64,000 nucleotides of DNA from a virus (Duplodnaviria; Heunggongvirae; Uroviricota; Caudoviricetes). The notes beneath the pieces were generated by a model. That model had not been told where the DNA came from. It was given only the letters and a program-made list of their open reading frames with translations, and did not search any database. Location of the stretch: positions 1 to 64,000 of IMG/VR virus record IMGVR_UViG_3300045988_024527; one strand, 5' to 3'. Positions 35,919-60,070 of the stretch are shown here, piece after piece (positions within the stretch are counted from its first letter, which is position 1; each line of letters begins with the position of its first letter). A program made the translations under genes and the position numbers.

Positions 35919-36452
35919 TCAACTTAGTTTTGCAAACTCTCCGTGGAGTTTAATAGCAGCTTCACAGTAAGCTTTATAGGCTTCTTCAGGTGTGTCATGG
36001 TGACCTAAAAACATCTTCTTACCTTTATAACTTATCTGTGCGACCCACTTACCGGACTTCTTCTTAAGACTTACACCCTTGTACCCAGATTTATTGGTGA
36101 CTGGTTTACCTTTATTCCAAGCACTTTGAAAATCATCTGCTTCCCTTAAGTTTACAATCCTGTTGTCAAGCGAGTCTCCGTTGATATGGTCAATGATACC
36201 TTTTGGCATCTTGCCATACACGTAAAGCCATGCGAGTCTGTGTGCTTTATGTGCTTTCTTGTCAAAATAGATACTAATCTGTTTATGACCACTTGAATCA
36301 GTCTGGATATTACCTGCCACCTTTCCTGCATAATTACTGTTAAAAACACTAACAGCTCTTGATTTACCTTCTCTACGAAGCCAAGTAAAGACCCCTGTTT
36401 CGGGGTCATAGTGCAGCAGCTCCTTTAAACGTTTTTGTAAAATTAAATCCAT
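35919..36452 (-). CDS. HNH homing endonuclease with AP2-like DNA-binding domain
   Basis: LHYDPETGVFTW ... HRLAWLYVYGKMPKGIIDHINGDSLDNRIVNLR ... SGYKGVSLKKKSGKWVAQISYKGKKMFLGHHDTPEEA; paralogue of 46036-46539 and 59579-60070. Confidence 0.75.
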   Translation of the reverse strand: MDLILQKRLKELLHYDPETGVFTWLRREGKSRAVSVFNSNYAGKVAGNIQTDSSGHKQISIYFDKKAHKAHRLAWLYVYGKMPKGIIDHINGDSLDNRIVNLREADDFQSAWNKGKPVTNKSGYKGVSLKKKSGKWVAQISYKGKKMFLGHHDTPEEAYKAYCEAAIKLHGEFAKLS

Positions 36453-36455
36453 TAA

Positions 36456-39185
36456 TCAATGTACCTCATACCAGCTCTTACCAACCTTTGCTGTACCAGT
36501 TACAAGTGTTTCTTTCCTCAAACCTAAGTTTTTTGAAGCTTGTCCATACATCCAGTCAGCAATTGCTTTCATATCCTGTGTCATACCCTCTGGACATTCC
36601 CAACTATTTTCATCGTGATATGCCAGAAGTAACCTTGCTCCGATAGCTGGTTTTCGAGCATTCAGTTTTGTCAGGCCATCTTCACAGGCTTTTCTTGCTG
36701 CTAGGTTGATGGCCTCATTCTGAATCTGTGCTTCCGAACTCATCAGGAGGTAGTTCAGTAGTTTATGTGGAGATTTGCACCATATCCATGCTCCAGCGAC
36801 CCTGATATAACCACCTTTAGCAATTGAAGAATTCTTCCCAAAAACCTCTTCCAGAGCCTTTTTAGACGCCTTAAAATCGGCTTCTAAGCTATCAAGTAAC
36901 TTCTTAATCTTTGGCAGACGCATATAGTAAGTTTGTTTAGTCAATGCACCTTCTTCCGTAGATGATGCCTTGATAGTTTTTGCAAACTTCTCGTCTCCGG
37001 CTCCAAATAACAGGGCGTAGATGCCATTTTTGCTCTTCTTACGGCCTTTTGTAATCTCGTGAAGAAGTTCCTCATCCTGTGTCTCCCTACAACGAACAAT
37101 ATCTTCTTCCTTGTTCAGACCAAAGTAAATACTGTTCAGTGTATGCGCATCAGTCCCTGTGTAGACTTCATAGAGGTCGTTCTCAGCATCATAACGAAGA
37201 TACTTGTCAGTTTCTGGATTAAGATACTTATTGAGATGCTTGCAATAGTATCTGCCATCCTCTTGCTTAGTGAACTCTACCGACTCTTTACCCTCAGTTA
37301 CTGCTTTAGTGAAGTCTTCATCACCCATAAAGTTACAAAGAAGAACTAGCTGTGCAGAGTTCTGGTCAACTGAAACAATGTTAGTCCCTTCCTCACAAAT
37401 CCAAACCTCCCTCATAGGTGCTCCATAGACAGCAGCACCAGACGGTACGTTTACAATACCATATTGTGTCATACGTCCAGTTGAAGTACCAAACACCATT
37501 GCACCAGCACTAAGGCGACCATCTGGACGAATCTGGTTCAACCAACCTTTTTCATCATCCTTTGAGTTCTCAATAGTTCTGCGTCTGTGCATCAAAGTAT
37601 AGTACTTAGCAATCTTCTGTCCAAGCTCACCTTCAATCGTATCATAAGATGATTCAGTAAGTTTTGGTGAAGTACGGATTAAGCAAGGTTCAAGCAAATC
37701 TGTGTACTTCTTCACAGACCAGTTATGCTCAATGTACTGTACACCTTCATGTTCAACATAACTCAAACCACACCGCTCGACCATTTCCTGCCACTTAGGA
37801 TGCTTTGTAATCATCTTTTTATTGTCTTTGAAACGACAAACTTTGACAGGGCGACCATCTGAGTCTTTCTTGTAGTTCCAGTCATCTGGAATCCAACCAA
37901 CTGATTTCAAGTAGTCTTTAACAACTGCTACCTGAGTCATACGAGAAACTTCAAACTCAATTGGTGTATATGGTGCATCAATCAAACCTGTGTAGCGACT
38001 TGACTCAAGTTCAAAGTGGTTAACAACATGGCTGTTATAGTACTTCACAGTTTTGACTGTTTTTACTGGCTTCCAGTCTTTGCATTTCTTACCAATCTTT
38101 GCATTCAACTCATTGCAAATTGCACGAGCATCCTTCATTGCTACAAAGCCTTCCTTGTACTCTTCACCAGTTACAGAGTTGGTTGGTGTATAGCAATTTC
38201 TCTTTTCAATGTTAAAAATCTTTGTAGTTGGCTTACCAAATGGTTTGATTTCGTATGTCTGCATCTCGCCATTACGTACCTGCTGACGATACTTTGTCTT
38301 AGGGTACTTGGTAATTCTTTTCAGTCCATCTGCATGACCAAATGTTTCAACATACTCATTCCAAGCTTTTGCAAACTCTTCTCCAGTGACTTTACCTTTG
38401 GTCTTAATAGTTGGAGGAAGATGTGGTTCAACCTCTGAAGCAAGCTCATTAGTCAATTTGTCAAGTTCCTTCACATGGAACTCCATAAGCTCTTTATCAG
38501 CTTTCCAGCCATTGATAGCTTGTTGACTCATCCAGAAAGATGTTTCTTTAGCTCGCATATAGGTTTCATAAGTATCTATGCCACACTTCTTAAGCTTGAG
38601 ATACTCATTATCAAGTGCCCGTTTAGCTTTGGCGTTAATACGGATGTCTTCTACAACACGAGTGAAGATTTCTGCATTCCATACACCCCAATGCTCAATC
38701 TCTGGTTTACGAACACCAACACGAGCACCCCATGCAGCCAAACCATGAGCACCTTTATAACCCTTCGGAGTTGGTCTATCCATCCACTGAACACGAGACT
38801 GGATAAGAGAATCCTGAAAGAAATTACTCCACGGTTTACACTTTGGATTATCAAAGTTCCATAAATCAGGTGCAATGTGATTGAAAACCCACCAGTCATA
38901 ACCGAGGCCGTTATGGATACAAAGTCGTTTTGCCTTTAACGCAAACTCAACACCTTCACGTAAACTACCCTTAATGTACTTGGTATACTTGTGACCGAGG
39001 ATAGGCTCATCTGTAAAGACCCATACAGGTGGCTCTTCATCGTCAGATTTATAGTCTGCGAAAGCCATTACGTGCACTTTAGTGAACTCAAGGAGTAAAC
39101 CATCAGTTTCTGTATCACCAACTAAATGTAAGTTTTTAAAATCTACGTTTTCCATTTTTACTCCCTCTAAAATCATTAACCTCAT
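36456..39185 (-). CDS. DNA polymerase (family A-like, with 3'-5' exonuclease domain)
   Basis: 909 aa; N-terminal LVGDTETDGL (Exo I DxE), C-terminal LLAYHDENSWECPEG (motif C-like HDE). Confidence 0.75.
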   Translation of the reverse strand: MRLMILEGVKMENVDFKNLHLVGDTETDGLLLEFTKVHVMAFADYKSDDEEPPVWVFTDEPILGHKYTKYIKGSLREGVEFALKAKRLCIHNGLGYDWWVFNHIAPDLWNFDNPKCKPWSNFFQDSLIQSRVQWMDRPTPKGYKGAHGLAAWGARVGVRKPEIEHWGVWNAEIFTRVVEDIRINAKAKRALDNEYLKLKKCGIDTYETYMRAKETSFWMSQQAINGWKADKELMEFHVKELDKLTNELASEVEPHLPPTIKTKGKVTGEEFAKAWNEYVETFGHADGLKRITKYPKTKYRQQVRNGEMQTYEIKPFGKPTTKIFNIEKRNCYTPTNSVTGEEYKEGFVAMKDARAICNELNAKIGKKCKDWKPVKTVKTVKYYNSHVVNHFELESSRYTGLIDAPYTPIEFEVSRMTQVAVVKDYLKSVGWIPDDWNYKKDSDGRPVKVCRFKDNKKMITKHPKWQEMVERCGLSYVEHEGVQYIEHNWSVKKYTDLLEPCLIRTSPKLTESSYDTIEGELGQKIAKYYTLMHRRRTIENSKDDEKGWLNQIRPDGRLSAGAMVFGTSTGRMTQYGIVNVPSGAAVYGAPMREVWICEEGTNIVSVDQNSAQLVLLCNFMGDEDFTKAVTEGKESVEFTKQEDGRYYCKHLNKYLNPETDKYLRYDAENDLYEVYTGTDAHTLNSIYFGLNKEEDIVRCRETQDEELLHEITKGRKKSKNGIYALLFGAGDEKFAKTIKASSTEEGALTKQTYYMRLPKIKKLLDSLEADFKASKKALEEVFGKNSSIAKGGYIRVAGAWIWCKSPHKLLNYLLMSSEAQIQNEAINLAARKACEDGLTKLNARKPAIGARLLLAYHDENSWECPEGMTQDMKAIADWMYGQASKNLGLRKETLVTGTAKVGKSWYEVH

Positions 39186-39200
39186 ACATTACTGCAAAAA

Positions 39201-39412
39201 ATTATAAAAAGCAAGTTGACAATGCACTTGACAAGGTGTTAATCTTTGCGAAGTGGGTTTTTACTTAAAAGGTTACTTAACAGTTTAACTATACAGATAC
39301 TTTAAAACTCTTAAAAGATTATTTAATAGCTTTTAAAAAGCTTTAAAGTATAACGTATAGAATACGTTAAGATAAAAGATTAAAACTTAATAGTTACTTA
39401 AAAGAGGCTTAC
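39201..39412. promoter_or_regulatory. AT-rich divergent control region between - and + gene blocks
   Basis: Duplicated TTGACA (39216-39221, 39228-39233), TATAAT on - strand (39201-39206), palindromes agctttt.aaaagct near 39328-39342 and taacgta/tacgtta (39351-39370); hexamer spacings are not canonical. Confidence 0.3.
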
Positions 39413-39835
39413 ATGCAGAAAATGTTTGTTCACCCAGACATAGCTGACTTTGTTAGAGCTTTGCAGAAGTTGGAAGAACTTGACATTGCTGCTCAACGGG
39501 AATATGCTCACCATCACAGGAGGATGGTTGATATACAACATGAAATAGAGTTGTCTGAAAACTATGAAGATGACTTAAAATGCTCTGTATTTGAGCATAT
39601 GAAAGATGTTGCTACAGCGAGACGCAAAGCTAAAGACACAGTTGCTTTACTAGATTCTCTTAAAAAGAGGTTGCAAAGTGGTACAGACCTGTGTAATCTA
39701 GCGTCACTGATTAACGATGTTGAAACTTCTTGGGATAGGCACTATTATCCACGTTCTGAAAAGACACTTGACTTTTCTTCATCCGAAAACTTAAAATGTT
39801 CTAGAAAGAAACTTAACCAACTGAGAGAGAAATAA
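39413..39835 (+). CDS. hypothetical protein (140 aa)
   Basis: ORF track. Confidence 0.45.
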   Translation: MQKMFVHPDIADFVRALQKLEELDIAAQREYAHHHRRMVDIQHEIELSENYEDDLKCSVFEHMKDVATARRKAKDTVALLDSLKKRLQSGTDLCNLASLINDVETSWDRHYYPRSEKTLDFSSSENLKCSRKKLNQLREK

Positions 39836-39836
39836 T

Positions 39837-40637
39837 ATGAATATCGATGTAGAAAAGATGCTTGAAGAGAAAGGTGTTGATGAAGCATTCTTAATCAATG
39901 CCGTAGAAAGCATGGCTATGATTCTTCGTGGGAACAACTACACAGAACAGTTTATGCCTGCAAGCTACAACTTGCCTGAAGACAAGTCTGATAACGGTGC
40001 TTTTGCAGAACAGGTTAATATGATGTTGACAGACACTACACTTGCTCTGGCATCTATTGCGGTTGGTGTTGATGCACTTGCTGAGTTCATTTTTTATGAA
40101 ATGCAAAAGAATGACTATATCAGGATGTCAGACGAAGATAAGGAACTGTTGCTGACTAAGGACGCTGATTTCATTATTGATACGCTTATCTCATCAACGA
40201 GTGCTGTAATGGCTGCTCTTGAGAAGCGAATGGAAGAGAAGTTGTCACGATATGAAAAACTTGATTGGGGTGTAGAAGAACTAAGCCCACGAATCAAAGA
40301 GATTATACAGCAAACTAAAGATTCTTTGGAAGAAGCTGTTGAAAATGACTCTGTAGCTGATATAGAACCACTTCAGGTGAAAGTTGCACTGATGATTCCA
40401 GCTATCTCTACGATGATGAATATCGTTGCACTAATCCAGCTTTCACAGATGATGGGTGTGAGTATGGAGTTCATTGAGGAAATGACTGGTGGTGTTAGTA
40501 TGCAAGCAATCAATGATGTTTTGGTGAACATTGGTGCTTCAATCATTGAAGAGAAACTACGCATTAACTTCGGTGATGATTTTGTGAAGCAAATCTCAGC
40601 TATGGCTGAAAAAGAGTATGCTGACCAACTGCACTAA
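39837..40637 (+). CDS. hypothetical acidic protein (266 aa)
   Basis: ORF track; coupled to upstream ORF. Confidence 0.45.
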   Translation: MNIDVEKMLEEKGVDEAFLINAVESMAMILRGNNYTEQFMPASYNLPEDKSDNGAFAEQVNMMLTDTTLALASIAVGVDALAEFIFYEMQKNDYIRMSDEDKELLLTKDADFIIDTLISSTSAVMAALEKRMEEKLSRYEKLDWGVEELSPRIKEIIQQTKDSLEEAVENDSVADIEPLQVKVALMIPAISTMMNIVALIQLSQMMGVSMEFIEEMTGGVSMQAINDVLVNIGASIIEEKLRINFGDDFVKQISAMAEKEYADQLH

Positions 40638-40654
40638 GTCTTTATAAATCTTAC

Positions 40655-40680
40655 AAGCCTCCTTAGTTGGGGGCTTTTTA
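40655..40680 (+). terminator. rho-independent terminator
   Basis: Stem aagcctcc/gggggctt, loop ttagtt, T-run. Confidence 0.55.
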
Positions 40681-40698
40681 GTAATTAATGGAGATAAA

Positions 40699-41442
40699 AT
40701 GAGTAATATTATAGCATTTACTGGAAAGGCGCGTTCTGGAAAAGACACCTCATGTTCTATTGTGAAGAACATCTTAGAGGATGAGCACGGCTACAATGTT
40801 GCAGTAATGGCCTTTGCAGACAACCTTAAACTATCTGCATCAAAGATATTTGACCTAACTTGGAATGACCTGTATGGTGAAACTAAAGAGACTCCGCAAG
40901 TATTTGACTTATCATATCATGAACTGATGTTTAAAGTTACGGAAGCTATGGAGTTCACCTTCAGGGATGAACGTTACCATATGGACTTCAAGCTTATGTC
41001 AGAGTTAACCGGACGATTAATCATGGAGCTTAAGAAGGTTGCTAAACCGACTCTATTGACACGTCTGGGGTTTAGCAAGAAGTATAAATTCTCATCAAGA
41101 CAAATTCAACAGATTTGGGGTACTGAAGTTATCCGTAAAGTTATGGGTGACAAATTCTGGGCTAAAGACCTTGAAAAAAGAATGGTTAGATTCCATGAAA
41201 TGTGCTCACTTAGAAATCAATATGGTTTTGTCTTAATCAGTGATTTAAGATTTGACTCTGAAGCTGAATGGCTGAGTAGATTTGCACACCAAACTATTGA
41301 AGTAAAAAGAGACAATGTGGACAAAGTTTCATCACATGTTTCAGAAAATGGGATTTCTACAAAATATGAGCGTGACATTATTCATAATAATGGTACTCTT
41401 GCAGACCTTGAGAACAAGCTAAGAGCCATCATTAAAGTTTAA
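40699..41442 (+). CDS. deoxynucleoside monophosphate kinase-like protein
   Basis: N-terminal P-loop IIAFTGKARSGKDTSCSIV resembles T4 gp1-type dNMP kinases. Confidence 0.6.
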   Translation: MSNIIAFTGKARSGKDTSCSIVKNILEDEHGYNVAVMAFADNLKLSASKIFDLTWNDLYGETKETPQVFDLSYHELMFKVTEAMEFTFRDERYHMDFKLMSELTGRLIMELKKVAKPTLLTRLGFSKKYKFSSRQIQQIWGTEVIRKVMGDKFWAKDLEKRMVRFHEMCSLRNQYGFVLISDLRFDSEAEWLSRFAHQTIEVKRDNVDKVSSHVSENGISTKYERDIIHNNGTLADLENKLRAIIKV

Positions 41443-41450
41443 AAGAGAGA

Positions 41451-41651
41451 ATGAAGATGAGAGTAAAAGACAATTTTAAAGTTATTGACCACCGTTTAGT
41501 GGAACTCTCATCTCTTTCCAATGAGGTAATGATTGAACGTCTTAAGAGAGTTGAATCACGAAGGAAAGAGATTGCAGATGAAATTCATGAACTGGACAAG
41601 ATTGAAAATGGATTGAAGGCAGAACTACAACGAAGAGGTGCTAATGTCTAA
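41451..41651 (+). CDS. hypothetical coiled-coil protein (66 aa)
   Basis: ORF track. Confidence 0.35.
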   Translation: MKMRVKDNFKVIDHRLVELSSLSNEVMIERLKRVESRRKEIADEIHELDKIENGLKAELQRRGANV

Positions 41652-43629
41652 AGGTCGTAAATTGAAAGAGGCTGGTCAGTTTATTGGTCATTGTGCATGT
41701 CCACGTTGTGGTTCATCAGATGCTGGTTCAATCTATCATCATGACGATGATTCTTATTCGATGACTTGCTTTAGCTGTAACAAAGGTTTCCCAGAGTGGG
41801 ATTTTGATAAAGGACAAATCGTGAGCACTTATTATACTGGTTCAGATAATAAAAACCGTACTTTCCGTGGAATGGATTTAGAAGATGTCAAAGAAAACCT
41901 TGAAGCAATGGACTTGAAAGACAGGAAAATTCCTGCAAAAGTCCTTGAACGTTTAGGTATCAAGGTTGACATTGACAGTGACGGTGAAATTGACGCACAT
42001 TTCTACCCAACTTACAAACGCAATGAAGATGGCAAGCTAGAACATGTTGGCTACCGTGTTCGTCACCGTTACCCAGAAGACCATCCAAAAGAACACCTAC
42101 GAGGTAAGCTAAAAGACTTCTCAGGTGGTGTTGGAGACATTAAAGGTGAACTGGCAATGTTCGGTTCATGGATTGCTCCAGAAGGTGGTAACCGTCTATT
42201 CATCTGGGAAGGTGAGATGGAATGTGCGACAGCAATCTATATGACTTCTCTTGCGATTAAAGATAAGTCTCGTCGTAAGAATTACTGTCACGTATCTGTT
42301 CCATCAGGTGCAAACATTAAGTCTATCAAAGACAACTATCAGTACATCACATCATTTGATGAGATTTACTTGTGCTTTGATAACGATGAAGCAGGTGCTA
42401 AAGCTACCAAAGAGGCTGCTGGTATCCTCCCTATTGAGAAGGTTCGTTTATTCCAGTATCCAGAAGGTGTAAAAGACCTTAACGAATGGTGGACAAAGTT
42501 CTATAAAGAGAAAGATACAGTTCTGGAAGGATTTAAGCAGCGTATCTACAATGCACCTCGTTACTGTCCTGCTGGTATCAAGAACTTCGCAGATGGTTTT
42601 GAGGCAATGAAGAATCGTGGTCAGATTCCATTGATACCTTTCCCAGAATCTTTCGGAGATTTGAACAGGCTGACTTATGGCGGTTACGGTTTAGGTGAGA
42701 TTACAACTCTGGCAGCACCATCTTCAGTGGGTAAATCAGCATACACTCGTGAAATGATTTACACAGCTTGGAAAGATACCGATTACAATATTGGTGTAAT
42801 TCCTGTAGAAGATACTTATGAAGAGTTGATGGAGATGCTCTGTGCAATCCACCTGAGCAAGCAGATTTCTGAGATTCCTTATGACGAACGTGATTGGGAT
42901 GAATTGAAGGAAGCACACGCAGAACTGTCTAAAGGTCGTCGTATCCACATCGTAGACCATCAAGGGGCAATTGACCAAGATAACTTGCTGGAATTTGTTG
43001 ACTATCTTGTTAACAGCTTGGACTGTAAGATTATTATTCTTGACCCTATTACGTTGGCTCTGTCACGTTCAGATACTGATGAAGAGGAAGTTTTATCTGA
43101 GCTATTGCGTCGTTGTAAACGCTACCAGTATGCACAAGTGAACGTCTGTCACGTTCGTAAGAGTGCAGGTGGTCAGAAGGCTAACTCTGAAGGTGGGGAT
43201 ATCTCTGAAGAGGATATTAAAGGCTCTGGTGCGTATTTCCAGATTTCTATGAACAACATTCTGTTAATGCGTAACAAGGTTGACCCAGACCCTGTTAAGA
43301 AAAACTTGACAAAAATCAAGTTAACTAAATGTCGTCGTCACGGTAAGTCAACGGGTATTGCTGGTCATACTTGGTACAATCCAGATACAGGACGCCTCAT
43401 CAAAGCATCTGGTTGTGGGGTAGACATTGATGGTGCAGCAGAAAATATTCGCCAACAGTTTGGTATTGGTGAAGCTGAAGACCATTACGATGACTCTTTG
43501 CCACATTATGAGGATGAAGTGTTTGACCGTGAGACTGGTGAAGTCTATACTGAAGAGCAGCGTCAAAGCTCAACGATTCCACCTGTATTAAGTGAGGATG
43601 CAGATGACTGCCCATTCGAAACTGAGTGA
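41638..43629 (+). CDS. bifunctional DNA primase / DnaB-like helicase
   Basis: N-terminal zinc ribbon CPRCGSSD...CFSCNKGF, TOPRIM-like LCFDNDEAGAKATKEAAG, helicase Walker A LAAPSSVGKSAYT. Confidence 0.75.
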   Translation: MLMSKGRKLKEAGQFIGHCACPRCGSSDAGSIYHHDDDSYSMTCFSCNKGFPEWDFDKGQIVSTYYTGSDNKNRTFRGMDLEDVKENLEAMDLKDRKIPAKVLERLGIKVDIDSDGEIDAHFYPTYKRNEDGKLEHVGYRVRHRYPEDHPKEHLRGKLKDFSGGVGDIKGELAMFGSWIAPEGGNRLFIWEGEMECATAIYMTSLAIKDKSRRKNYCHVSVPSGANIKSIKDNYQYITSFDEIYLCFDNDEAGAKATKEAAGILPIEKVRLFQYPEGVKDLNEWWTKFYKEKDTVLEGFKQRIYNAPRYCPAGIKNFADGFEAMKNRGQIPLIPFPESFGDLNRLTYGGYGLGEITTLAAPSSVGKSAYTREMIYTAWKDTDYNIGVIPVEDTYEELMEMLCAIHLSKQISEIPYDERDWDELKEAHAELSKGRRIHIVDHQGAIDQDNLLEFVDYLVNSLDCKIIILDPITLALSRSDTDEEEVLSELLRRCKRYQYAQVNVCHVRKSAGGQKANSEGGDISEEDIKGSGAYFQISMNNILLMRNKVDPDPVKKNLTKIKLTKCRRHGKSTGIAGHTWYNPDTGRLIKASGCGVDIDGAAENIRQQFGIGEAEDHYDDSLPHYEDEVFDRETGEVYTEEQRQSSTIPPVLSEDADDCPFETE

Positions 43630-43885
43630 TAGTTATAAAAGAGAGGGGTTCACACCCTTCTTTGAAGAAAAAAGTTTAAATAAATTTCAGGAAGAGTGTT
43701 TGACAAAGATTGATAGGTTCTATAGAATGCTCCTCATGAAATGCGATGGGGAAGTTGAGGTAAAAGAAGATTTCCACCAGAGTATGATTACAGTCATCAT
43801 TGCGCTGCCTCAGCATAATATTAGTTGGCTGTTTATAATTAAAGAAAATGTGTTTGAATATCAAGTATATCGGAGAATATCATGA
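43604..43885 (+). CDS. hypothetical protein
   Basis: ORF-track frame 43592-43885; start uncertain, overlaps primase-helicase 3' end. Confidence 0.3.
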   Translation: MTAHSKLSDSYKREGFTPFFEEKSLNKFQEECLTKIDRFYRMLLMKCDGEVEVKEDFHQSMITVIIALPQHNISWLFIIKENVFEYQVYRRIS

Positions 43886-44031
43886 AACACTCTAAAGCAT
43901 TTGAAAAAGTTTTTGGGGATTCCTTAAAAGCCACTGCTGGAAAACCAGCAAAATACTATGAAGAAAAACGTGTAAGAACTGGAAAAACTGCACGTAAAGC
44001 AGCTTCTAAAGATAAGCACAACTTCCAGTAA
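43882..44031 (+). CDS. hypothetical small basic protein (49 aa)
   Basis: ATG 43882, stop 44029-44031; MKHSKAFEKVFGDSLKATAGKPAKYYEEKRVRTGKTARKAASKDKHNFQ; below ORF-track cutoff. Confidence 0.3.
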   Translation: MKHSKAFEKVFGDSLKATAGKPAKYYEEKRVRTGKTARKAASKDKHNFQ

Positions 44032-44038
44032 TTAGTAT

Positions 44039-44067
44039 TTGACAATAGAGTATCAACAAACTAGAAT
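44039..44067 (+). promoter_or_regulatory. sigma70-type promoter
   Basis: TTGACA 44039-44044, 17 bp spacer, TAGAAT 44062-44067; about 35 nt upstream of gene 44104. Confidence 0.55.
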
Positions 44068-44103
44068 TGGTACTCTTCATAAATTGAGATAGAGGTTTAA
44101 ATA

Positions 44104-44961
44104 ATGTCTAAAGTTGTTAAAATGAAAGCTCCGGTAGAGAAGTACAATGGTACTGAACGTCAAACTCTGCGTTACCTTCTGAAAGATGTATGGTTTTATT
44201 ACCTGAACACTTCACCACGTCCGGGGAAAGGTAAATCCATTGACAAGAAATTCCCAGGAAAAGACTGTAACTACAGCGTATCAATTCTGGCAGAAGACGG
44301 TAACAAACTGTTTAAAGAGTTTACTAAGTCTAAGAAAAATCCAGAAGGCTGGGATAAAGTCACTACTGAAGCAGTTGATGCAGACGACTTCGAAGAGAAG
44401 TTTGGTTGTAAACCACCTTTTGAAGCAGACACTTACTACATCTTGAAAGTAAGTCGTGCAGCAGCTTATAAAGATGGTGCTGTATGGACAGCTAAACAGT
44501 CATTCCCTGTTATGCTTATTGAAGAAGTAAATGGTAAGCGTGTAGCTGTTAAGCAGCCGATGAAGAAAATCAAAGCTCAAGCATCTGATAAACATGAAGA
44601 TGATAAGAACTATGATGTAATTCATCCAGATATTGCAGTTGGCAACGGTTCTTTTGGTAGTGTGATTCTTTCTACTCACTTCTACACTTTTGAGAACAAT
44701 GTTCTGACAAAACCTATTCAGGAACAGTTTATCATTGATACTCTTGTACCTTACACTGGTGGTAACGGTGCTAACGGTGAACCTGAACTGGATGAAGATG
44801 AACTGGCTATGCTTGGTCTTGATGGTGTTGAAGATAACGGTGAAATCACTGAAGAAGACGCAACAGACCACAAACCTTCGAATAATTCTGATGATGGTGA
44901 CGATGAAGACTTGCCAGACCCAGATGACGAAGAAGATGAAGACTTCGATACAGAAGACTAA
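44104..44961 (+). CDS. putative single-stranded DNA-binding protein (acidic C-terminal tail)
   Basis: 285 aa with C-terminus DDGDDEDLPDPDDEEDEDFDTED as in phage SSBs; in replication cluster; not verified. Confidence 0.4.
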   Translation: MSKVVKMKAPVEKYNGTERQTLRYLLKDVWFYYLNTSPRPGKGKSIDKKFPGKDCNYSVSILAEDGNKLFKEFTKSKKNPEGWDKVTTEAVDADDFEEKFGCKPPFEADTYYILKVSRAAAYKDGAVWTAKQSFPVMLIEEVNGKRVAVKQPMKKIKAQASDKHEDDKNYDVIHPDIAVGNGSFGSVILSTHFYTFENNVLTKPIQEQFIIDTLVPYTGGNGANGEPELDEDELAMLGLDGVEDNGEITEEDATDHKPSNNSDDGDDEDLPDPDDEEDEDFDTED

Positions 44962-44980
44962 TCTCTAAAAGTTACTTTAA

Positions 44981-45007
44981 AGCCCTGTACTTAGTATGGG
45001 GCTTTTT
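44981..45007 (+). terminator. rho-independent terminator
   Basis: Stem agccc/gggct with T-run 45003-45007. Confidence 0.5.
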
Positions 45008-45023
45008 CATATGGAGAGCCATA

Positions 45024-46070
45024 ATGGAGAAGTACACATTAACAAAACTTCCCGATTCAGTTACACATGTCTTTATTGACTCTGACAGTATTGCCTATAA
45101 AGGTGCTTGTGTAGTTGAGAAAGCAAAATATAAATACGTCAATAAACTCACAGCAGAAGAATCTGAGCCATTTGATAATGCGAAAGATGCTGCAAGATGG
45201 TTAGCAGACCAGAGAATCCTTGTGGAAGAGCTTGGCCTGACATTTGATGAAGATGAATGGGAAAGACAGACTTGGAAAGAAGCGAAGAGTGAAAAAGAAG
45301 CTATCATGGCTACTCAACAGGTGCTTCAGGAATGGCTTAAGGTTGTTGGTAAAGAGAGAACTTGGGTAGGTTACTTAACAGAGAAAGGTGTGCATAAACA
45401 CAAAGACATTAAAGGTCTTGAGCACCAATATCAAGGTAACCGCAAAGATGCTGTCACACCAACACACTTAGTTGCTTGTCGTGAGTATCTTCTGTCAAGA
45501 CCAGAGTTCAAATTAATTCTTGATGGATTTGAAGCTGACTCTATCGTTATTGCTAAAGCTGAAAAGATGGGAAAAAAGGCTGCCTTAATGAGTATTGATA
45601 AAGACCTTCGCCAAGCTGAAGGGACTTACTGTATTGATATGACCTATGAAAAGTCGCCTTTGATTTTCATTGCTGATAACAATGTTGGTGAAATTTGGGA
45701 TTGTCCAATAAAATCGACACCAAAAGCTAAGAAGACAGTTGGGGTAGGTTTTAAATTTCTTTGTTACCAAGCTGTGGCTGGTGATAATGCGGATAATTAT
45801 TTTGGTTTAAAGGGTGTTGGTAAGGTTACTATAATGAAAGCCCTTGAAGGTAAAACCACCTACAAAGAGTGTCTTGATGCAATTTATGAACTTTATGCTA
45901 AGAAAGAGTCATACACTTATGTCTCGTGGGATGGTCAAACAATTACCAGAACACCTTTAGAGTTAATGCAGCAACACTTTTTCTTAGCTTATCAGGAAAG
46001 AAACAAGAAAGATGATTTCACTTTTGATAAGTATGGATGGACACCAAATGTTAACCCAACAAACTCTTAA
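45024..46070 (+). CDS. 5'-3' exonuclease / flap endonuclease (RNase H-like)
   Basis: Acidic motifs DSDSIAYKG, DGFEADSIV, DKDLRQ and H3TH-like AVAGDNADNYFGLKGVGKVT. Confidence 0.7.
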   Translation: MEKYTLTKLPDSVTHVFIDSDSIAYKGACVVEKAKYKYVNKLTAEESEPFDNAKDAARWLADQRILVEELGLTFDEDEWERQTWKEAKSEKEAIMATQQVLQEWLKVVGKERTWVGYLTEKGVHKHKDIKGLEHQYQGNRKDAVTPTHLVACREYLLSRPEFKLILDGFEADSIVIAKAEKMGKKAALMSIDKDLRQAEGTYCIDMTYEKSPLIFIADNNVGEIWDCPIKSTPKAKKTVGVGFKFLCYQAVAGDNADNYFGLKGVGKVTIMKALEGKTTYKECLDAIYELYAKKESYTYVSWDGQTITRTPLELMQQHFFLAYQERNKKDDFTFDKYGWTPNVNPTNS

Positions 46071-46539
46071 AGAATACCTACACTATGACCCCGAAACAGG
46101 GGTCTTTACTTGGATTAAGAAGTCTGCTAGACACACAAAAATTGGCTCTGTTGCAGGTACAAACTTAAGAGGGTACACCAGAATTTATTTGTTTGGTAAG
46201 GGTTATTATGCACATACTCTAGCTGTTCTGTATATGGATGGATACCTACCTGAGTGTGTTGACCATAAAAATCATGTAACACTAGACAATCGATGGGTAA
46301 ACCTTAGGGCATGTACATTATCAGAGAACCAATGCAATAGGTTGCTCAATAAGAACAATAAATCAGGTGTTAAAGGTGTGTACTACAAAAAACAGTATGG
46401 TAAGTGGTCTACACAGATAACTTTTAAGAAGAAAGTTTACTTCTTCGGAAACTATGACACTATTGATGAAGCAGCAGAGGTTGTAAATAGGGAACGCCAA
46501 CGTTTACACAAAGAGTTTGCTAATAAAGGTGATGAATGA
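46036..46539 (+). CDS. HNH homing endonuclease with AP2-like domain
   Basis: LKEYLHYDPETGVFTW ... HTLAVLYMDGYLPECVDHKNHVTLDNRWVNLR ... SGVKGVYYKKQYGKWSTQITFKKKVYFFG; start uncertain (track 46012). Confidence 0.7.
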   Translation, partial: DGHQMLTQQTLKEYLHYDPETGVFTWIKKSARHTKIGSVAGTNLRGYTRIYLFGKGYYAHTLAVLYMDGYLPECVDHKNHVTLDNRWVNLRACTLSENQCNRLLNKNNKSGVKGVYYKKQYGKWSTQITFKKKVYFFGNYDTIDEAAEVVNRERQRLHKEFANKGDE

Positions 46540-47036: not shown

Positions 47037-47042
47037 TAACTA

Positions 47043-52777: not shown

Positions 52778-52784
52778 AATGAAA

Positions 52785-52825: not shown

Positions 52826-54022
52826 ATGAACAAAGTACAGATTATTAAAAAGAATGGCTCACTTGAAGAACCTGATATCAAAAAAGTTTTAGCAGCAGTA
52901 ACTAAGTCAGCTAACAGAGTTGGATATAAAGAACTCCCACCAGATGTTACCCAAGCTCTTGAGTCAGCATTTATGAGGATTCTGGTAAAGTCCACTAAGC
53001 AGAATAATTTACTCATCTCAGTCAATGATATCCACAGCATTGTTGAGGGTGCTTTGGCAGAAGTCAATCACGAGATTTATGAGTCTTACTCAACATATAG
53101 AAATTACCGGAAAGAGGTTGCTCAAAATTGGGATGAGCTTTACCAAAAGACTAGAGACACGCTCTTCTTAGGTGACCGTGAAAACGCTAACTTTGACAGC
53201 AGTTTAATTTCTACAAAAGGTTCAATTATTCGTGGTTATCTGACTAAAGAAATCTTTAAACAGTACCATTTAACACCAGAGGAACTTGAAGCCATTGAAA
53301 AAGGGTTTATCTATATCCATGATTTAAGAGACCTAATTTTTGGTGGTATCAACTGTTGCCTGTTTGACATTGGTAAAGTACTGAAAGGTGGCTTTGAAAT
53401 GTCTGGCATCGAATACTGTGAACCGAAGTCTGTGCTGTCAGCCTTACAGGTTATTGGTGATGTAGTTCTTTCAGCAACTGCACAGCAATTTGGTGGCTTT
53501 ACTTTAGCAGAGATTGATAAGGTACTTGTACCGTATGCTAAGAAGTCTCTACGCTATCATGCTGAGAAAGCAGCATCTTACGGTATTCCTAAAGAACATT
53601 ACCACAATTATGTCATGGAGCAGCTACAGATTGAACTGACTCAAGGTTTCCAGTCACTTGAAATGAAACTAAACACTGTACCTTGTAGTCGTGGGGATTT
53701 TGCATTTACAACTTTGACATTTGGGTTACTTGACTCAGATATGTCTAATGAAGATAATCGACTGCAATACATGATTGCAAGTACTCTCCTAGATGTTCGT
53801 ATGAATGGACAAGGTAAGAGCAAGAAGCCTGTTGTATTCCCTAAACTGGTTTATATTTATGACCAGAAGAGACACGATGAGAATATCTGTCAAGGACACC
53901 TGTACAGTAAAGCCATTGAGTGTTGCTCTAAAGCGATGTATCCAGATTTCTTAAGTGTATCTGGTCATGGTGCTGTAGCAGAGGCTTTTGAGCGTTCTGG
54001 TAAGGTTATTTCACCGATGGGT
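52826..54022 (+). CDS. nrdD: anaerobic ribonucleotide reductase, exon 1
   Basis: 399 codons ending ...ERSGKVISPMG; reading frame hits stop 3 nt into the proposed intron. Confidence 0.8.
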
Positions 54023-54764
54023 TAACAGGCTCTATAGCTCATCTAAAACGTGCCTAAACAGGGAAACTCTACAGATGTAGACAATCCTGTGCTAAATGAT
54101 GTACGATGTAAGAAACTATACAACATAGGAGTCTTACATGCCAAACTATCACGTCACTGAAGATGGAAAAGTCTTTAGGGAAAATGGTGTAGAACTTACG
54201 CAGTGGAAATCCAACACTGGGTATATGAAAGTGAGGTTTTACGGTAAGAAGAATCGTGACATGTATGTCCACAGGTTAGTTGCTGAGAAATATGTACCTA
54301 ACCCGAATAATCTTCCAATTGTAAAACATAAGGACGATAACAAACTAAATAACCACGCATCTAACTTAGAATGGGGTACTCATTCTGAGAATGCTAAAGA
54401 GGGTTATGAGAACGGATGTTACAAGTTCCACAAGCGTTCATATGCCGTGAAAGCCACACACAAAGTGACAAAGGAAGTTATTGTTGCTAAGTCAATACGA
54501 GAGTTATCCAATATACTTGGACACAATCGCAAGACCATCTCTTCAATATTGAAGGGTGTAAAAGAGCATAATAACTTCGAATATGAGTTTGAATACATCT
54601 AAATGCCGAACGACTAACCGTGATGAATGTAGCGGTGTAGGGTCAAGCGACTCGAAATGGTACGCTACTTAGAAATAAGTAGAAGATATAGTCTGGACTT
54701 ACTGGCGACAGTAAGCAGCTTGAATAAAGCGGGGTAAGCTTAGCGAACTTACCTGAACAACAAG
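54023..54764 (+). other. group I self-splicing intron interrupting nrdD
   Basis: Exon 1 ends in U (54022) and intron ends in G (54764); exon tail gatgggu can pair intron gcucauc (54037-54043) with U-G at the splice site; joining gives ...SPMG|CRAFLSPYLNDNGEEFYVGRANIG...; intron carries an HNH ORF. Confidence 0.65.
54138..54602 (+). CDS. intron-encoded HNH homing endonuclease
   Basis: VHRLVAEKYVPNPNNLPIVKHKDDNKLNNHASNLEWGTHSENAK is an HNH_3-type motif; located inside the nrdD intron. Confidence 0.8.
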   Translation: MPNYHVTEDGKVFRENGVELTQWKSNTGYMKVRFYGKKNRDMYVHRLVAEKYVPNPNNLPIVKHKDDNKLNNHASNLEWGTHSENAKEGYENGCYKFHKRSYAVKATHKVTKEVIVAKSIRELSNILGHNRKTISSILKGVKEHNNFEYEFEYI

Positions 54765-55712
54765 TGTAGAGCGTTTTTATCACCATATCTTAACGATAAT
54801 GGGGAAGAGTTCTATGTAGGTCGTGCTAACATTGGTGCTGTGTCTTTGAACTTACCAATGATTTACCAGTATTCTAAAGAGAATGGTTTAGATTTCTGGA
54901 AAGAGCTTGATAAGTACCTAGAGATGATTCGTAGTTTCCACAAGAAACGCTATGAAATGATTGCCAATATGCCAGCAAGTTCTAACCCTCTTGCATTTAC
55001 ACAAGGTGGTCTGTACAAAGGAACTAAGAAGCCTACTGACAAGGTTGGTTGGGATATTGTGAAGTCCTTCACAGCTTCTTTTGGGGTTACTGCGCTTGAT
55101 GAGCTATCTGTTCTTGCTGAAGGTAAACGACTTCATGAAGTTGGAAGCTATAGTTTTGCATATGATGTTCTGGCATACATCAATATGAAAACTGAAGAGT
55201 TTAAGAACGAAGATGGCTTCTTGTATGCGGTATATGGCACTCCAGCAGAATCACTTTGTGGAACTCAGTTAAAACAGTTCAGAGATATGTTTGGCGTTAT
55301 TAAAGGTGTCTCTGACAAGGAATACTTTACAAACAGTTTCCATATGAATGTTGCAGCAGACATCTCACCATTTGAGAAGCAGGACTTAGAAGAGCCATTC
55401 TTCCATATCTGTAGAGGTGGTAGAATCCAGTATGTAAGGGTAGCTAACCCAGAAAACTTACCAGCACTTAAAAGTTGTATTACAAGAGGGATGTTGAAGG
55501 GTTTTTATCAGGGACTTAACTTTGACTTAGCAATCTGTGAACATTGTGGTAACAGACCAAAAGCTGATGTTGAAGAATGTGAGGTTTGTCATTCACATGA
55601 TATCTCTGTGATTAACAGGGTGTGCGGATACTTATCATTCACAAAAATTAAAGGCCAGTCTCGAATGAATGACGCTAAGATGGCAGAAATTAAGGATAGG
55701 ATTTCTATGTAA
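54765..55712 (+). CDS. nrdD: anaerobic ribonucleotide reductase, exon 2
   Basis: In-frame continuation with C-terminal cysteine cluster CEHCGNRPKADVEECEVCHSHD and glycyl-radical motif RVCGYLSF. Confidence 0.8.
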   Translation, partial: CRAFLSPYLNDNGEEFYVGRANIGAVSLNLPMIYQYSKENGLDFWKELDKYLEMIRSFHKKRYEMIANMPASSNPLAFTQGGLYKGTKKPTDKVGWDIVKSFTASFGVTALDELSVLAEGKRLHEVGSYSFAYDVLAYINMKTEEFKNEDGFLYAVYGTPAESLCGTQLKQFRDMFGVIKGVSDKEYFTNSFHMNVAADISPFEKQDLEEPFFHICRGGRIQYVRVANPENLPALKSCITRGMLKGFYQGLNFDLAICEHCGNRPKADVEECEVCHSHDISVINRVCGYLSFTKIKGQSRMNDAKMAEIKDRISM

Positions 55713-55721
55713 AACTTGACA

Positions 55722-56517: not shown

Positions 56518-57003
56518 ATGAATTACATGGAGATTAGACCATTTGACACAGCTAATGGTGAAGGGGTTCGTGTAAGCCTCTTCGTAGCTGGCTGTAAACA
56601 TCACTGTGAAGGCTGCTTTAACAGGGAGTCTTGGAAGTTTAATGCTGGTAAAGAGTTTACTTATGCAAACCTCTACGGCATCATTAAGTTAATGGATGAT
56701 AAGGCCATTAGTGGGTTGTCAATACTTGGTGGAGAGCCTCTGGATGACAGAAACATTCAAGAGGTCACCAACATATGCAAACGTATTAAAACTGTTTACC
56801 CAGAAAAATCTATATGGCTTTGGACAGGTTTTCAGTTACACGAAAAAATCCACCTAGATGTGATGAAATATGTTGACGTGGTGATTGATGGTAAGTATGA
56901 TTCTTCTAAACCAACGAACAAACCATATCGTGGTTCAGACAACCAAAACTTGTGGAGAAAAGAATATGGGTGGCAAGGCGACTGTCAGTGGAGAGCAGAG
57001 TAG
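56518..57003 (+). CDS. nrdG: anaerobic ribonucleotide reductase activating protein (radical SAM)
   Basis: CKHHCEGCFN (CxxxCxxC radical-SAM cluster motif); 161 aa; near nrdD. Confidence 0.8.
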   Translation: MNYMEIRPFDTANGEGVRVSLFVAGCKHHCEGCFNRESWKFNAGKEFTYANLYGIIKLMDDKAISGLSILGGEPLDDRNIQEVTNICKRIKTVYPEKSIWLWTGFQLHEKIHLDVMKYVDVVIDGKYDSSKPTNKPYRGSDNQNLWRKEYGWQGDCQWRAE

Positions 57004-57049
57004 CTACTCCGGTAAGTGGACTTATAATATTAACTCACTTGATGAGTGG

Positions 57050-57244
57050 ATGGTAAAGACCCATGAGAAGTTTGGGAAAAGTGGGTTAGTAGCTCTAGCA
57101 GAGGTTGTTAAACGTGTTACTTTCCACGTTGATTCAGAAAGCGCATTTAATGATGGACAGACATTTTTCACTGACGTAGCATACGGAGATGTTCAAGTTG
57201 GTATTGAAAAAGAAGAACTAGACCAGTTCTGTATTAAACTTTAA
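57050..57244 (+). CDS. hypothetical protein
   Basis: ORF-track frame 56885-57244 trimmed to an internal ATG to avoid overlap with nrdG; start uncertain. Confidence 0.25.
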   Translation: MVKTHEKFGKSGLVALAEVVKRVTFHVDSESAFNDGQTFFTDVAYGDVQVGIEKEELDQFCIKL

Positions 57245-57259
57245 TGAGAGAGACTAAAA

Positions 57260-57517
57260 ATGGGAATTTTAGGTAATATGAAAGCTGGCTTCTTGAAGCC
57301 ACTGGCAAAAGCAGCAGCAATCATTGCTATGACTGGAAAGCAGGTTGGTGTCGATGCTTCAGCAGTTGCACAAGTTCTTGCAAGCCAAATTGAACAGCAG
57401 CCTTACATCTACGTAGGACGTGGAAAAGGTGGTAAAAAACAAGCACATCGACCAACTGGTGCAGCAGCAATTAAACGTGCAGCTAAGAAAGCTCGTAACC
57501 GTAAACGCAACAAGTAA
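57260..57517 (+). CDS. hypothetical protein with basic C-terminal tail
   Basis: 85 aa; C-terminus AAIKRAAKKARNRKRNK. Confidence 0.35.
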   Translation: MGILGNMKAGFLKPLAKAAAIIAMTGKQVGVDASAVAQVLASQIEQQPYIYVGRGKGGKKQAHRPTGAAAIKRAAKKARNRKRNK

Positions 57518-57528
57518 GGATAACCAAA

Positions 57529-57840: not shown

Positions 57841-57853
57841 GAGTCTATGATTA

Positions 57854-57877
57854 GGGAACTGTAAAGGTTCCCTTTTT
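57854..57877 (+). terminator. rho-independent terminator
   Basis: gggaac-tgtaaag-gttccc followed by ttttt. Confidence 0.6.
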
Positions 57878-57891
57878 ATTTTGGAGATAAT

Positions 57892-58407: not shown

Positions 58408-58678
58408 AGCAGATTGGGAAATAAAAGACCTAATAAGTGATGCTGGAAATGGTTGTGAGATGTATATGATTCGTGGCCATATACCAGACCCATTAGCTCT
58501 TGAGATGATTGACCGTCACACAAACGGATTCTACAAAGAACTAGGTGAACCAAATGTTGAACGCACTTGGACAAAACCAGTACCAGATAGCACAGGCAAC
58601 TGTTCAGTAATCTATCACATTGTGAATCCACAAAAATGCAAAACAGCTATGGCTGTGACATTCGTAACTTTTGATTGA
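58400..58678 (+). CDS. hypothetical protein (92 aa)
   Basis: ORF track. Confidence 0.35.
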   Translation: MAKADWEIKDLISDAGNGCEMYMIRGHIPDPLALEMIDRHTNGFYKELGEPNVERTWTKPVPDSTGNCSVIYHIVNPQKCKTAMAVTFVTFD

Positions 58679-59570
58679 GAGTAAAACTATGAAAACATCT
58701 ATCCGTGTTATAATTCATTCACCGACAAAAGGGTCTCATGAAGAAGAGTTTAACCTCATCCAGTTCCCTTCTGGTGAGATTGGTGGACACTTTTCACAAG
58801 AGCTTGTTGACTTTACTGCTCACGCAGCATCATCCATCAACAATGTGATTATGATTGTAAAAGGTTATGATAAAGACACATTGTTTGCTGTGGCACTTGC
58901 TAAAGAAGCAATTGATGATTTAGTTCCTCATGAATATGCCTTAAAGACTGTCATTTTTTACTACTTACCAAATGCACGATATGACCGTCACATGTTTAAA
59001 GGTGATGCAGCAGCTTTGAAGGTTTTTGCTAAACAGGTTAATGCAATGGGGTTTGGTGCAGTCTGTGCAGTTGACCCTCACAGTTATGTACCAGACAACC
59101 TATTTAACTGCTTCCAAAGCATTCCTCAAAAGGAAGTCGCAGTTCACTATGCGAATGACCCTCTGGTTGATTACTTAGTAGCCCCAGATGCAGGTGCTTC
59201 TAAGAAGATTGCAGAGACTGCTAAAGAGGTGGATAAACCATACATCACAATGTCTAAAGTACGTAACCTTAAGACTGGTGAAATTACTGGTATGCGAATC
59301 CTTGATGATGTTGATTTGACCGATAAAACTGTTATGATTCTCGACGATATCTGTGATGGTGGTCGAACATTCATAGAAGCAGCTAAACATCTTCGTGAAG
59401 CAGGTGCAAAACGTGTGGAACTCTATGTAACACATGGTATCTTCTCTAAAGGTGTTGAAAACCTTCTTGACAATGGTATTGACCACATTTACACTACAAA
59501 CTCTTTAGGGGAAGCTAAAGACCGTGGCTTAACACATTATGGTCAAGTTACTGTAGCAAACCTTGATTAG
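58671..59570 (+). CDS. ribose-phosphate pyrophosphokinase (PRPP synthetase)-like protein; candidate ADPR-pyrophosphate synthetase
   Basis: PRTase-fold signature DKTVMILDDICDGGRTFIEAAKHL and overall Prs-like layout (about 300 aa). Confidence 0.65.
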   Translation: MIESKTMKTSIRVIIHSPTKGSHEEEFNLIQFPSGEIGGHFSQELVDFTAHAASSINNVIMIVKGYDKDTLFAVALAKEAIDDLVPHEYALKTVIFYYLPNARYDRHMFKGDAAALKVFAKQVNAMGFGAVCAVDPHSYVPDNLFNCFQSIPQKEVAVHYANDPLVDYLVAPDAGASKKIAETAKEVDKPYITMSKVRNLKTGEITGMRILDDVDLTDKTVMILDDICDGGRTFIEAAKHLREAGAKRVELYVTHGIFSKGVENLLDNGIDHIYTTNSLGEAKDRGLTHYGQVTVANLD

Positions 59571-59578
59571 GTATTAAA

Positions 59579-60070
59579 ATGGATAAGGGTTACTTCGAAA
59601 AATACCTAATATACGAACCGGAGACAGGTTTACTAATTTGGAAAGTAACCCTTTGCAATACCGCTATTGCTGGTAATGTTGCTGGCACAAGGTCTAAGAA
59701 GGGTTATATCCAAGTCCAGATAAATAAGAAGAGGTACTATGCACATAATATTGCATGGATTATGTCTGGAGGTGAGATACCAAGTGGATATGAGATAGAC
59801 CACATAGACCTTGATAAATCTAATAATAAGTTGGAGAATTTAAGACTTAGCACAAAATCACAAAATCAGAGGAATAGGGGTATATACAAGAATAATAAAA
59901 CTGGTGTGAAGGGTGTAAGTTTTTGTAAACAAACAGGTCTTTACAAAGCAAGAGTCATGCTTTACCATAAAGAATACTTTTGTGGAAGATTTAAAACGGT
60001 AGAAGAAGCAAAAGAAGCTGTAATTAAAAAGCGAATAGAACTTCATGGTGAGTTTGCAAGACATAACTAA
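59579..60070 (+). CDS. HNH homing endonuclease with AP2-like domain
   Basis: YLIYEPETGLLIW ... HNIAWIMSGGEIPSGYEIDHIDLDKSNNKLENLR ... TGVKGVSFCKQTGLYKARVMLYHKEYFCGRF; third copy of this family. Confidence 0.75.
   Translation: MDKGYFEKYLIYEPETGLLIWKVTLCNTAIAGNVAGTRSKKGYIQVQINKKRYYAHNIAWIMSGGEIPSGYEIDHIDLDKSNNKLENLRLSTKSQNQRNRGIYKNNKTGVKGVSFCKQTGLYKARVMLYHKEYFCGRFKTVEEAKEAVIKKRIELHGEFARHN

Follow-up and report, generated by a model that had tools for sequence, protein, structure and literature searches.

Three polymorphic HNH-AP2 genes, probably homing endonuclease genes, beside essential genes of a Felixounavirus genome

We analyzed a 64,000-nt stretch of viral DNA (positions 1 to 64,000 of IMG/VR record IMGVR_UViG_3300045988_024527; hereafter, the window) that carries three paralogous genes for proteins combining an HNH nuclease domain with an AP2-type domain, here called HNH1, HNH2 and HNH3. 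HNH1 (35919-36452, minus strand) encodes a free-standing protein of 177 amino acids (aa) next to a family A DNA polymerase gene. HNH2 (46048-46539, plus strand) adjoins a flap-endonuclease-like 5'-3' exonuclease gene, and HNH3 (59579-60070, plus strand; 163 aa) lies between a Prs-like gene and a NAMPT gene. An earlier, sequence-only reading had proposed three HNH-AP2 open reading frames (ORFs) beside essential genes. All three were present on the strands proposed, each with an HNH_3 domain above the Pfam cut-off, and Pfam recovered the neighboring genes as claimed. The gene proposed at 46036-46539 is real, but its start had to be changed, since position 46036 is no start codon; the in-frame ATGs are at 46012, 46033 and 46048. 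Those at 46048 and 46033 are conserved in all carriers, and 46012 is an ATG only in the window and one relative.

The HNH_3 domain (PF13392; curated cut-off 24.8 bits) scored 54.5 bits in HNH1, 44.4 bits in HNH2 and 69.7 bits in HNH3. The AP2 domain (PF00847) exceeded its cut-off of 33.3 bits in HNH1 (47.5 bits) and was sub-threshold in HNH2 (21.4 bits) and HNH3 (20.8 bits), with E values of about 4e-4; we refer to the latter two as AP2-like. Both proteins align to HNH1 over their full length, AP2 region included (BLASTP, 42% and 37.5% aa identity; E 1e-38 and 8e-32). The trio are full-length paralogs sharing 37-42% aa identity, in which an N-terminal Y(D/E)PETG region is followed by HNH_3 and then by the C-terminal AP2-type domain. 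Among the motifs previously described as shared, Y(D/E)PETG holds for all copies, whereas GVKGV is not found in the polymerase-adjacent one, which has GYKGV. In an alignment of the trio with ORF95 of phage Felix O1, the catalytic residues D88, H89, N97, N101 and N113 (HNH1 numbering) were invariant. A PDB sequence search with HNH1 returned plant AP2 domains only, its AP2 region matching those of WRI1/ERF proteins (E 4e-7), and an NCBIfam search gave nothing useful.

All three proteins belong to PHROG 99 (phrog_99), annotated 'HNH endonuclease', as is a protein of phage vB_SflM_004 that is 100% identical to HNH3. With tblastn, 2,976 phage records contained relatives of HNH3; T7 gene 3.8 is one of these relatives, as is a T5-like gene with the annotation 'HNH nicking homing endonuclease F-TflVIII'. 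Orthologs of the three genes are intact and under purifying selection, with ratios of nonsynonymous to synonymous divergence (dN/dS) of roughly 0.05-0.2. No fourth HNH-AP2 copy was detected in the window when all six frames were searched with phmmer, and this search, combined with Pfam scans of 20 other small ORFs, revealed no further endonuclease genes.

HNH1 (36390-36407, minus strand) and HNH2 (46087-46104, plus strand) have in common a perfect palindrome of 18 nt, GACCCCGAAACAGGGGTC, whose sequence is identical in both and encodes DPETGV. It lies within a stretch of about 30 nt that is identical, by eye, in the two genes; the shuffled expectation was 0.01 matches. The palindrome may reflect gene conversion between the paralogs or a functional hairpin near the 5' ends of the ORFs.

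The window is a Felixounavirus (Felix O1-like) genome. A 13-kb query (35000-48000) matched 277 phage records, nearly all of them Felixounavirus or other Ounavirinae infecting Escherichia, Salmonella and Shigella, and mostly at 90-99% identity. The gene content agrees with this assignment: a transfer RNA (tRNA) cluster, structural genes, thymidylate synthase / DHFR, ligase, family A DNA polymerase, primase-helicase, 5'-3' exonuclease, Prs-like and NAMPT genes. Both class Ia and class III ribonucleotide reductases are also encoded.

To score presence and absence, each endonuclease gene and its flanks (about 400 bp per side) were searched against 50,697 phage records, and a record was counted as window-type when it held the window-type allele plus both flanks. 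In addition, we compared the regions around the exonuclease and Prs genes in 27 Ounavirinae genomes from IMG/VR, to which phages ULIM9 and ph2-2 were added. Site states in these relatives were taken from the distance between conserved BLAST anchors, with junctions listed directly. For the footprints, per-base identity between the window and each relative was averaged by endonuclease-gene state; dN/dS of the HNH genes was computed per hit, keeping the paralogs apart. None of the three HNH-AP2 genes is fixed. Window-type HNH1 occurred in 52 of 231 matching records, HNH2 in 20 of 245 and HNH3 in 62 of 237. Clean empty sites exist at all three positions, as an 82-nt gap next to the polymerase gene, a direct overlap of the exonuclease gene with the GIY-YIG gene that follows it, and a 76-nt spacer between the Prs-like and NAMPT genes. 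The check that the sequence-only reading had proposed, presence or absence in relatives, came out in favor of mobility for the trio.

The pattern is clearest for HNH3, which stands between the Prs-like gene (58671-59570) and the NAMPT gene (60089-61870). At this site, 5 of the 27 IMG/VR genomes carry the endonuclease gene (about 547 nt) and 22 are empty (75-79 nt). HNH3 replaces a GC-rich hairpin of about 32 nt and a T-run between the Prs stop codon and the NAMPT ribosome-binding site (GAGAGAGA), and this terminator hairpin is kept in every empty genome, other genera included, within the 76-nt intergenic spacer. The first 100 nt of NAMPT are 95.5% identical to the window in HNH3 carriers versus 79.7% in non-carriers, and its remaining bins are about 93% identical in carriers and non-carriers alike. 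This 5' patch (60089-60200, plus strand) co-segregates with HNH3 and may be a target-site or co-conversion region. Part of the carrier-type patch is also present in three non-carriers (L036, L039 and L042), which are recombinants. In phiSUSP1 and Moogle, which belong to other genera, HNH3 and the adjoining NAMPT patch are about 90% identical in nucleotide sequence to the window, compared with only 76-77% for Prs and the rest of NAMPT. We read this excess similarity as direct evidence of lateral spread. The corresponding excess of gene over flank is less clean for HNH1 and HNH2.

HNH1 lies 4 nt downstream of the stop codon of the DNA polymerase gene (36456-39185, minus strand), which is intact, encodes 909 aa, matches Pfam DNA_pol_A and is annotated as DNA polymerase in relatives. 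At least five states of this site were found in relatives: window-type HNH1, other HNH-AP2 lineages, the 82-nt empty gap and unrelated small ORFs. The rival lineages are 83, 72, 52 and 47-49% identical to HNH1 in aa sequence, the last being the Felix O1 ORF95 type. Orthologs of HNH1 itself are intact, with a dN/dS of about 0.14-0.16. The polymerase gene changes together with its neighbor. Its 3'-terminal ~900 bp (36456-37350, minus strand) are 97-100% identical in nucleotide sequence to genomes with window-type HNH1 and 70-80% identical to every other genome, and identity returns to 94-99% upstream of the tract, beyond about 37400. The median synonymous divergence (dS) is 1.96 in the tract versus 0.21 in the middle of the gene, with a tract dN/dS of 0.06. 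We consider this deeply diverged allele, which travels with HNH1, a putative co-conversion tract or cassette. As a separate observation, many relatives (REP5, L27, NBSal004 and JLBYU28, for example) have two DNA polymerase coding sequences annotated and one has two primase/helicase coding sequences. This suggests that introns, inteins or endonuclease genes have been inserted within those genes as well, at places where the window has no insertion.

HNH2 alters the end of the gene into which it is inserted. The 5'-3' exonuclease / flap-endonuclease-like gene (45024-46070, plus strand) has a weak Pfam 5_3_exonuc match and is annotated as exonuclease or RNase H in relatives. The insertion point lies 5 codons before its stop, at the overlap of the exonuclease and GIY-YIG genes, and the insertion supplies the last ~10 codons of the exonuclease. 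In empty-site genomes, the protein ends in WEPCMNED, with the GIY-YIG start overlapping the stop codon; in carriers it ends in WTPNV(N/D) and further residues (as in WTPNVNPTNS). This new tail is read from another frame of the endonuclease gene's own 5' end, and at the 3' junction an ATGA-type start/stop overlap with the GIY-YIG ORF is recreated. Among the 27 IMG/VR genomes, 11 hold an HNH gene at the site (559-568 nt) and 16 are empty (74 nt). Occupied sites contain either of two HNH-AP2 lineages, whose aa identity to HNH2 is 94-99% in one and 53-59% in the other. In empty-site genomes, identity drops to about 79-80% over the 3'-terminal 500 bp of the exonuclease gene and the 5'-terminal 200 bp of the GIY-YIG gene. 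Two alleles of the exonuclease 3' end (the last ~500 bp, 45500-46010) occur, one matching the window at about 95% identity and the other at about 78%.

Across the 27 genomes, the three HNH-AP2 sites and a fourth polymorphic site, in the anaerobic ribonucleotide reductase gene nrdD (see below), assort independently, and the combination of states found in the window is absent from all sampled genomes. ULIM9 has all three HNH-AP2 genes and an uninterrupted nrdD; ph2-2 has HNH1 as its only HNH-AP2 gene, plus an intron without an ORF. Divergence peaks exactly at the insertion points and co-segregates with the endonuclease-gene allele. Since this matches the prediction of cleavage followed by co-conversion, the earlier proposal that the endonucleases shape recombination between phages is supported as far as this allele-linked divergence goes, the cut sites themselves being placed from the divergence patterns.

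These observations argue strongly that the three ORFs are free-standing homing endonuclease genes of a widespread phage HNH_3 + AP2 family, which we consider very probable from comparative sequence data. Our model suggests that, in a mixed infection, the HNH domain would nick or cut a co-infecting relative's allele that lacks the endonuclease gene, close to or at the insertion point, with the AP2-type domain providing sequence recognition. Repair templated by the carrier genome would then copy the endonuclease gene together with a variable stretch of the neighboring essential gene. The expected outcome is three hot spots that are filled, empty or held by rival HNH-AP2 lineages, each bordered by an unusually diverged patch linked to the endonuclease-gene allele. 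We infer the cleavage of empty alleles, the cut positions, the specificity of the AP2 domain and repair copying as the origin of the tracts from the protein family and from these footprints.

The gene that follows HNH2 behaves differently. The GIY-YIG ORF (46536-47036, plus strand) encodes a SegE-type nuclease-domain protein of 166 aa that matches Pfam SegE_GIY-YIG with 95 bits. It has the fold and the conserved motif residues of GIY-YIG nucleases, and its structural model superposes best on the I-TevI catalytic domain; a PDB sequence search with it gave no match. The nuclease domain comprises residues 22-139 and is followed by a single helix, without a separate C-terminal DNA-binding domain; longer family members, of 240-390 aa, exist. 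The sequence-only reading had described HNH2 and this ORF as a tandem HNH and GIY-YIG pair. The nuclease fold agrees with that description, but the ORF is no current insertion, as the gene is strongly constrained and is found at the same position in 30 of 30 genomes examined, from several genera, with or without HNH2. Its aa identity is 95-99% within the genus and 87-88% in other genera, with a dN/dS of 0.04, like that of the polymerase and exonuclease genes. The same reading had named one result that would count against mobility, namely copies at identical positions in every relative with no empty sites, and this is what we observed for the GIY-YIG ORF. Its product is most likely a domesticated or long-fixed nuclease, the gene being a core gene of the subfamily that is not currently moving.

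We regard it as unlikely that the GIY-YIG ORF is instead an ordinary homing endonuclease swept to fixation, forming a two-nuclease mobile cassette with HNH2. Family membership, the similarity of its fold to I-TevI and the existence of many longer, Seg-like relatives would suit such an origin, but the protein lacks the separate C-terminal DNA-binding domain of those longer members. Synonymous divergence is elevated in its 5' 160-200 nt beside the HNH2 site; however, the presence of the gene in all 30 genomes, other genera included and whether or not HNH2 is there, indicates that it does not move with HNH2. Finally, a fixed selfish gene without empty targets is expected to decay, whereas this one is as constrained as the polymerase and exonuclease genes. 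Some GenBank records do list it as a GIY-YIG homing endonuclease. PHROG 447 and a large number of GenBank records label the ORF 'NAD synthetase', which neither Pfam nor the predicted fold supports and which looks like a propagated misannotation. In one genome (L031, Escherichia phage EC6, 11489-11987) the ORF is frameshifted after codon 85, which could reflect sequencing error or genuine decay.

With the GIY-YIG gene seen as a resident core gene, it sits exactly at the hot spot invaded by HNH2-type genes. A further proposal, which we put forward tentatively as a possibility, has two parts: that the HNH1-linked C-terminal ~300 residues of the polymerase are swapped as a cassette by endonuclease-driven conversion, and that the GIY-YIG gene is a domesticated core gene with a role beneficial to the phage. 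Such a role might be, for example, the degradation of host or competitor DNA, as by T4 EndoII.

Several points weigh against homing as the explanation for the trio. The AP2 assignment of HNH2 and HNH3 falls under the curated Pfam threshold. Scans around HNH1 and HNH3 for promoters and terminators gave counts that did not clearly exceed those expected from shuffled sequence, and neither gene could be credited with a promoter or terminator of its own. The target sites of HNH1-3 are placed from divergence patterns only, and presence or absence by itself could also be obtained through deletion. The exonuclease 3' allele tracks HNH2 imperfectly, with three genomes (L013, L014 and L018) carrying an HNH gene and yet having the ~79% allele. 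The polymerase tract, with a dS of about 2, is too divergent for simple co-conversion between close relatives. This implies either that it came in from a distant lineage outside the sample or that the linkage is long-standing.

The last two points, together with the length of the polymerase tract (~900 bp), would also be expected if the diverged flanks were ordinary phage mosaicism unrelated to cleavage, with endonuclease genes hitch-hiking in exchanged modules. We consider this improbable. Over ~27 kb compared in at least 27 genomes, the sharpest dips in identity abut the four endonuclease insertion points, starting at the insertion nucleotide, and the NAMPT patch is short (about 100 nt) and follows HNH3 even in other genera.

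Even less credible, in our judgment very improbable, is that the HNH-AP2 genes are ancestral accessory genes lost by deletion, which would serve the phage as AP2 regulators or packaging-associated HNH proteins, for instance. It is true that all copies are intact and under purifying selection, that the genes are co-oriented and tightly packed with their neighbors without promoters of their own, and that the polymerase site holds some HNH-AP2 gene in most genomes. However, the terminator hairpin conserved in the empty Prs/NAMPT site of all genera sampled makes the empty state look ancestral, and the 90% identity of HNH3 in other genera exceeds that of its flanks there (76-77%). At one and the same nucleotide position, HNH-AP2 lineages of 47-99% aa identity substitute for each other, the independent assortment of the four sites speaks against decay, and packaging-type HNH proteins adjoin terminase genes, unlike the trio. 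An identity as packaging HNH proteins or as inteins was rejected, the genes being neither beside the terminase nor in frame with their neighbors.

Besides the homing endonuclease genes proposed here, the window contains endonuclease genes outside the HNH-AP2 family. A group I intron of 742 nt (54023-54764, plus strand) interrupts nrdD (exons 52826-54022 and 54765-55712) and encodes an HNH_3 endonuclease of 154 aa (54138-54602, plus strand; phrog_59) without AP2. This confirmed the earlier claim of an nrdD intron endonuclease: removal of the intron rejoins the exons into a 714-aa nrdD, the same length as the uninterrupted ULIM9 gene. The last nucleotide is U in the upstream exon and G in the intron. 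In Rfam, the window intron matched Intron_gpI with 33.1 bits (E 2e-6), under the gathering score of 50 because the ORF interrupts the covariance model; the ORF-less 316-nt allele of ph2-2, which is 95-100% identical to the window intron outside the ORF, scored above it (52.9 bits, E 1e-12). A search of the whole window at Rfam gathering thresholds called tRNAs only, and not the intron. Among the 27 IMG/VR genomes, 7 have the intron with its HNH gene, 3 have an ORF-less intron and 17 have no intron. At the 5' end of exon 2, synonymous differences from intronless alleles affect five of the initial six codons. The HNH_3 domain of the intron-encoded protein scored 41.2 bits (cut-off 24.8), its dN/dS among carriers is 0.04 and its match to the HNH-AP2 trio is weak and local (E about 1e-3). 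We regard the nrdD intron and its HNH gene, from these features, as a separate, classical mobile group I intron. It is polymorphic within Felixounavirus, as Felix O1 was reported to be intron-free (PMC3185647).

A decayed HNH gene had been proposed at 285-464. A remnant does exist, but homology to intact HNH genes begins only at about 324, and the feature spans 324-464 (plus strand; 47 codons, preceded by an in-frame TAG). It is the 3' part of a 115-aa zinc-finger HNH gene of the tRNA region, intact in CRP22, Felix O1 and Sf16, and in the window it reads HH, a stop codon, HPSDKDFNIGHRKSLKFSQELKDELDKCVLLCSNCHKVRHAKY and a second stop codon. The remnant lies outside the HNH-AP2 family and is a dead copy of a third endonuclease type. 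Positions 1-323 had no megablast match in the 50,697 phage records, unlike the sequence from 324 on, and this segment seems to have taken the place of the 5' portion of the HNH gene. The window starts with the 3' end of a DNA methyltransferase gene (containing DPFSGSGST; stop codon at 216-218), followed by a hairpin. At 698-4058, 16 tRNA genes reach the Rfam gathering score and are interspersed with DUF7338 and DUF7217 ORFs.

Two further observations concern the wider comparison. The segment 57000-57300 is also indel-polymorphic, being covered in only ~26% of the 27 relatives; it overlaps two small ORFs (56885-57244 and 57260-57517), neither with a Pfam match. Long Felixounavirus stretches, at 93-97% identity, occur in database records under the names Campylobacter phage A132/A126 and Staphylococcus phage SA1; these entries are probably contaminated or mislabeled.

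Homing endonuclease genes rank among the main causes of local mosaicism in the genomes of lytic phages. They complicate phylogenetic work as well as efforts to engineer therapeutic phages, and phages of the genus Felixounavirus are applied against Salmonella and E. coli. The window offers a clean worked example, with three hot spots, competing HNH-AP2 lineages, precise junctions and a 900-bp tract reaching into the polymerase gene, and it indicates where cut sites should be sought. In these phages, the annotations 'GIY-YIG homing endonuclease' and 'NAD synthetase' probably hide a conserved nuclease.

Among known systems, the T4-type free-standing homing endonucleases SegF, SegG and MobE resemble the trio: they are inserted sporadically between genes or at gene ends beside essential DNA-metabolism genes, and flanking markers are co-converted. 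These enzymes are reportedly covered in a 2010 review by Edgell, Gibb and Belfort under the terms 'intronless homing' and marker exclusion. Unlike the window trio, the Seg proteins belong to the GIY-YIG enzymes, and MobE, although an HNH protein, has no AP2. In addition, cleavage and biased inheritance have been shown experimentally for the T4-type enzymes, whereas for the trio they are predicted from sequence comparison. T5 F-Tfl and T7 gene 3.8, which are tblastn relatives of HNH3 (34-37% identity over most of the length), are likewise small free-standing HNH proteins of lytic coliphages, but they are distant in sequence and occupy other genomic sites. Some F-Tfl enzymes have nicking activity.

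The nrdD (sunY) intron of T4, with I-TevIII, parallels the window intron as a group I intron with an HNH-type ORF in an anaerobic ribonucleotide reductase gene, and ORF-less or defective variants occur in both. The likeness is drawn at the level of intron type, the Rfam match being to the generic group I model only. The I-TevI catalytic domain and T4 SegE are the counterparts of the 166-aa GIY-YIG ORF, by its Pfam SegE_GIY-YIG match and the best superposition of its model. However, the window protein has no linker or DNA-binding domain, and its gene is fixed and constrained rather than sporadic.

Also among the closest known systems is Felix O1, which shares the genus, the protein family and the genomic sites with the window. 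Whichard et al. described six HNH homing-endonuclease-like genes in this phage in 2010 (PMC3185647), and a passage in PMC5318435 credits Magnani et al. 2004 with noting HNH-AP2 proteins in both Felix O1 and RB49. Comparisons of Felixounavirus genomes mention variable homing endonuclease content (PMC8300805, PMC6669636), and gene conversion around homing endonucleases is acknowledged in large coliphages (PMC8594841). Felix O1 ORF95 is an HNH-AP2 protein at the polymerase-adjacent site whose C-terminal 26 residues are almost identical to those of window HNH1, although HNH1 is only about 47% identical to this allele overall. The two genomes also differ in that Felix O1 was reported without introns, whereas the window has the nrdD group I intron. 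The published descriptions of Felix O1 and of the HNH-AP2 proteins cited above contain no report of the flanking co-variation seen here. The HNH-AP2 elements of the window are of an already known kind and represent no new type of element; the linkage of HNH1 to a deeply diverged C-terminal allele of the polymerase, and the behavior of the GIY-YIG ORF as a core gene, may be new in detail.

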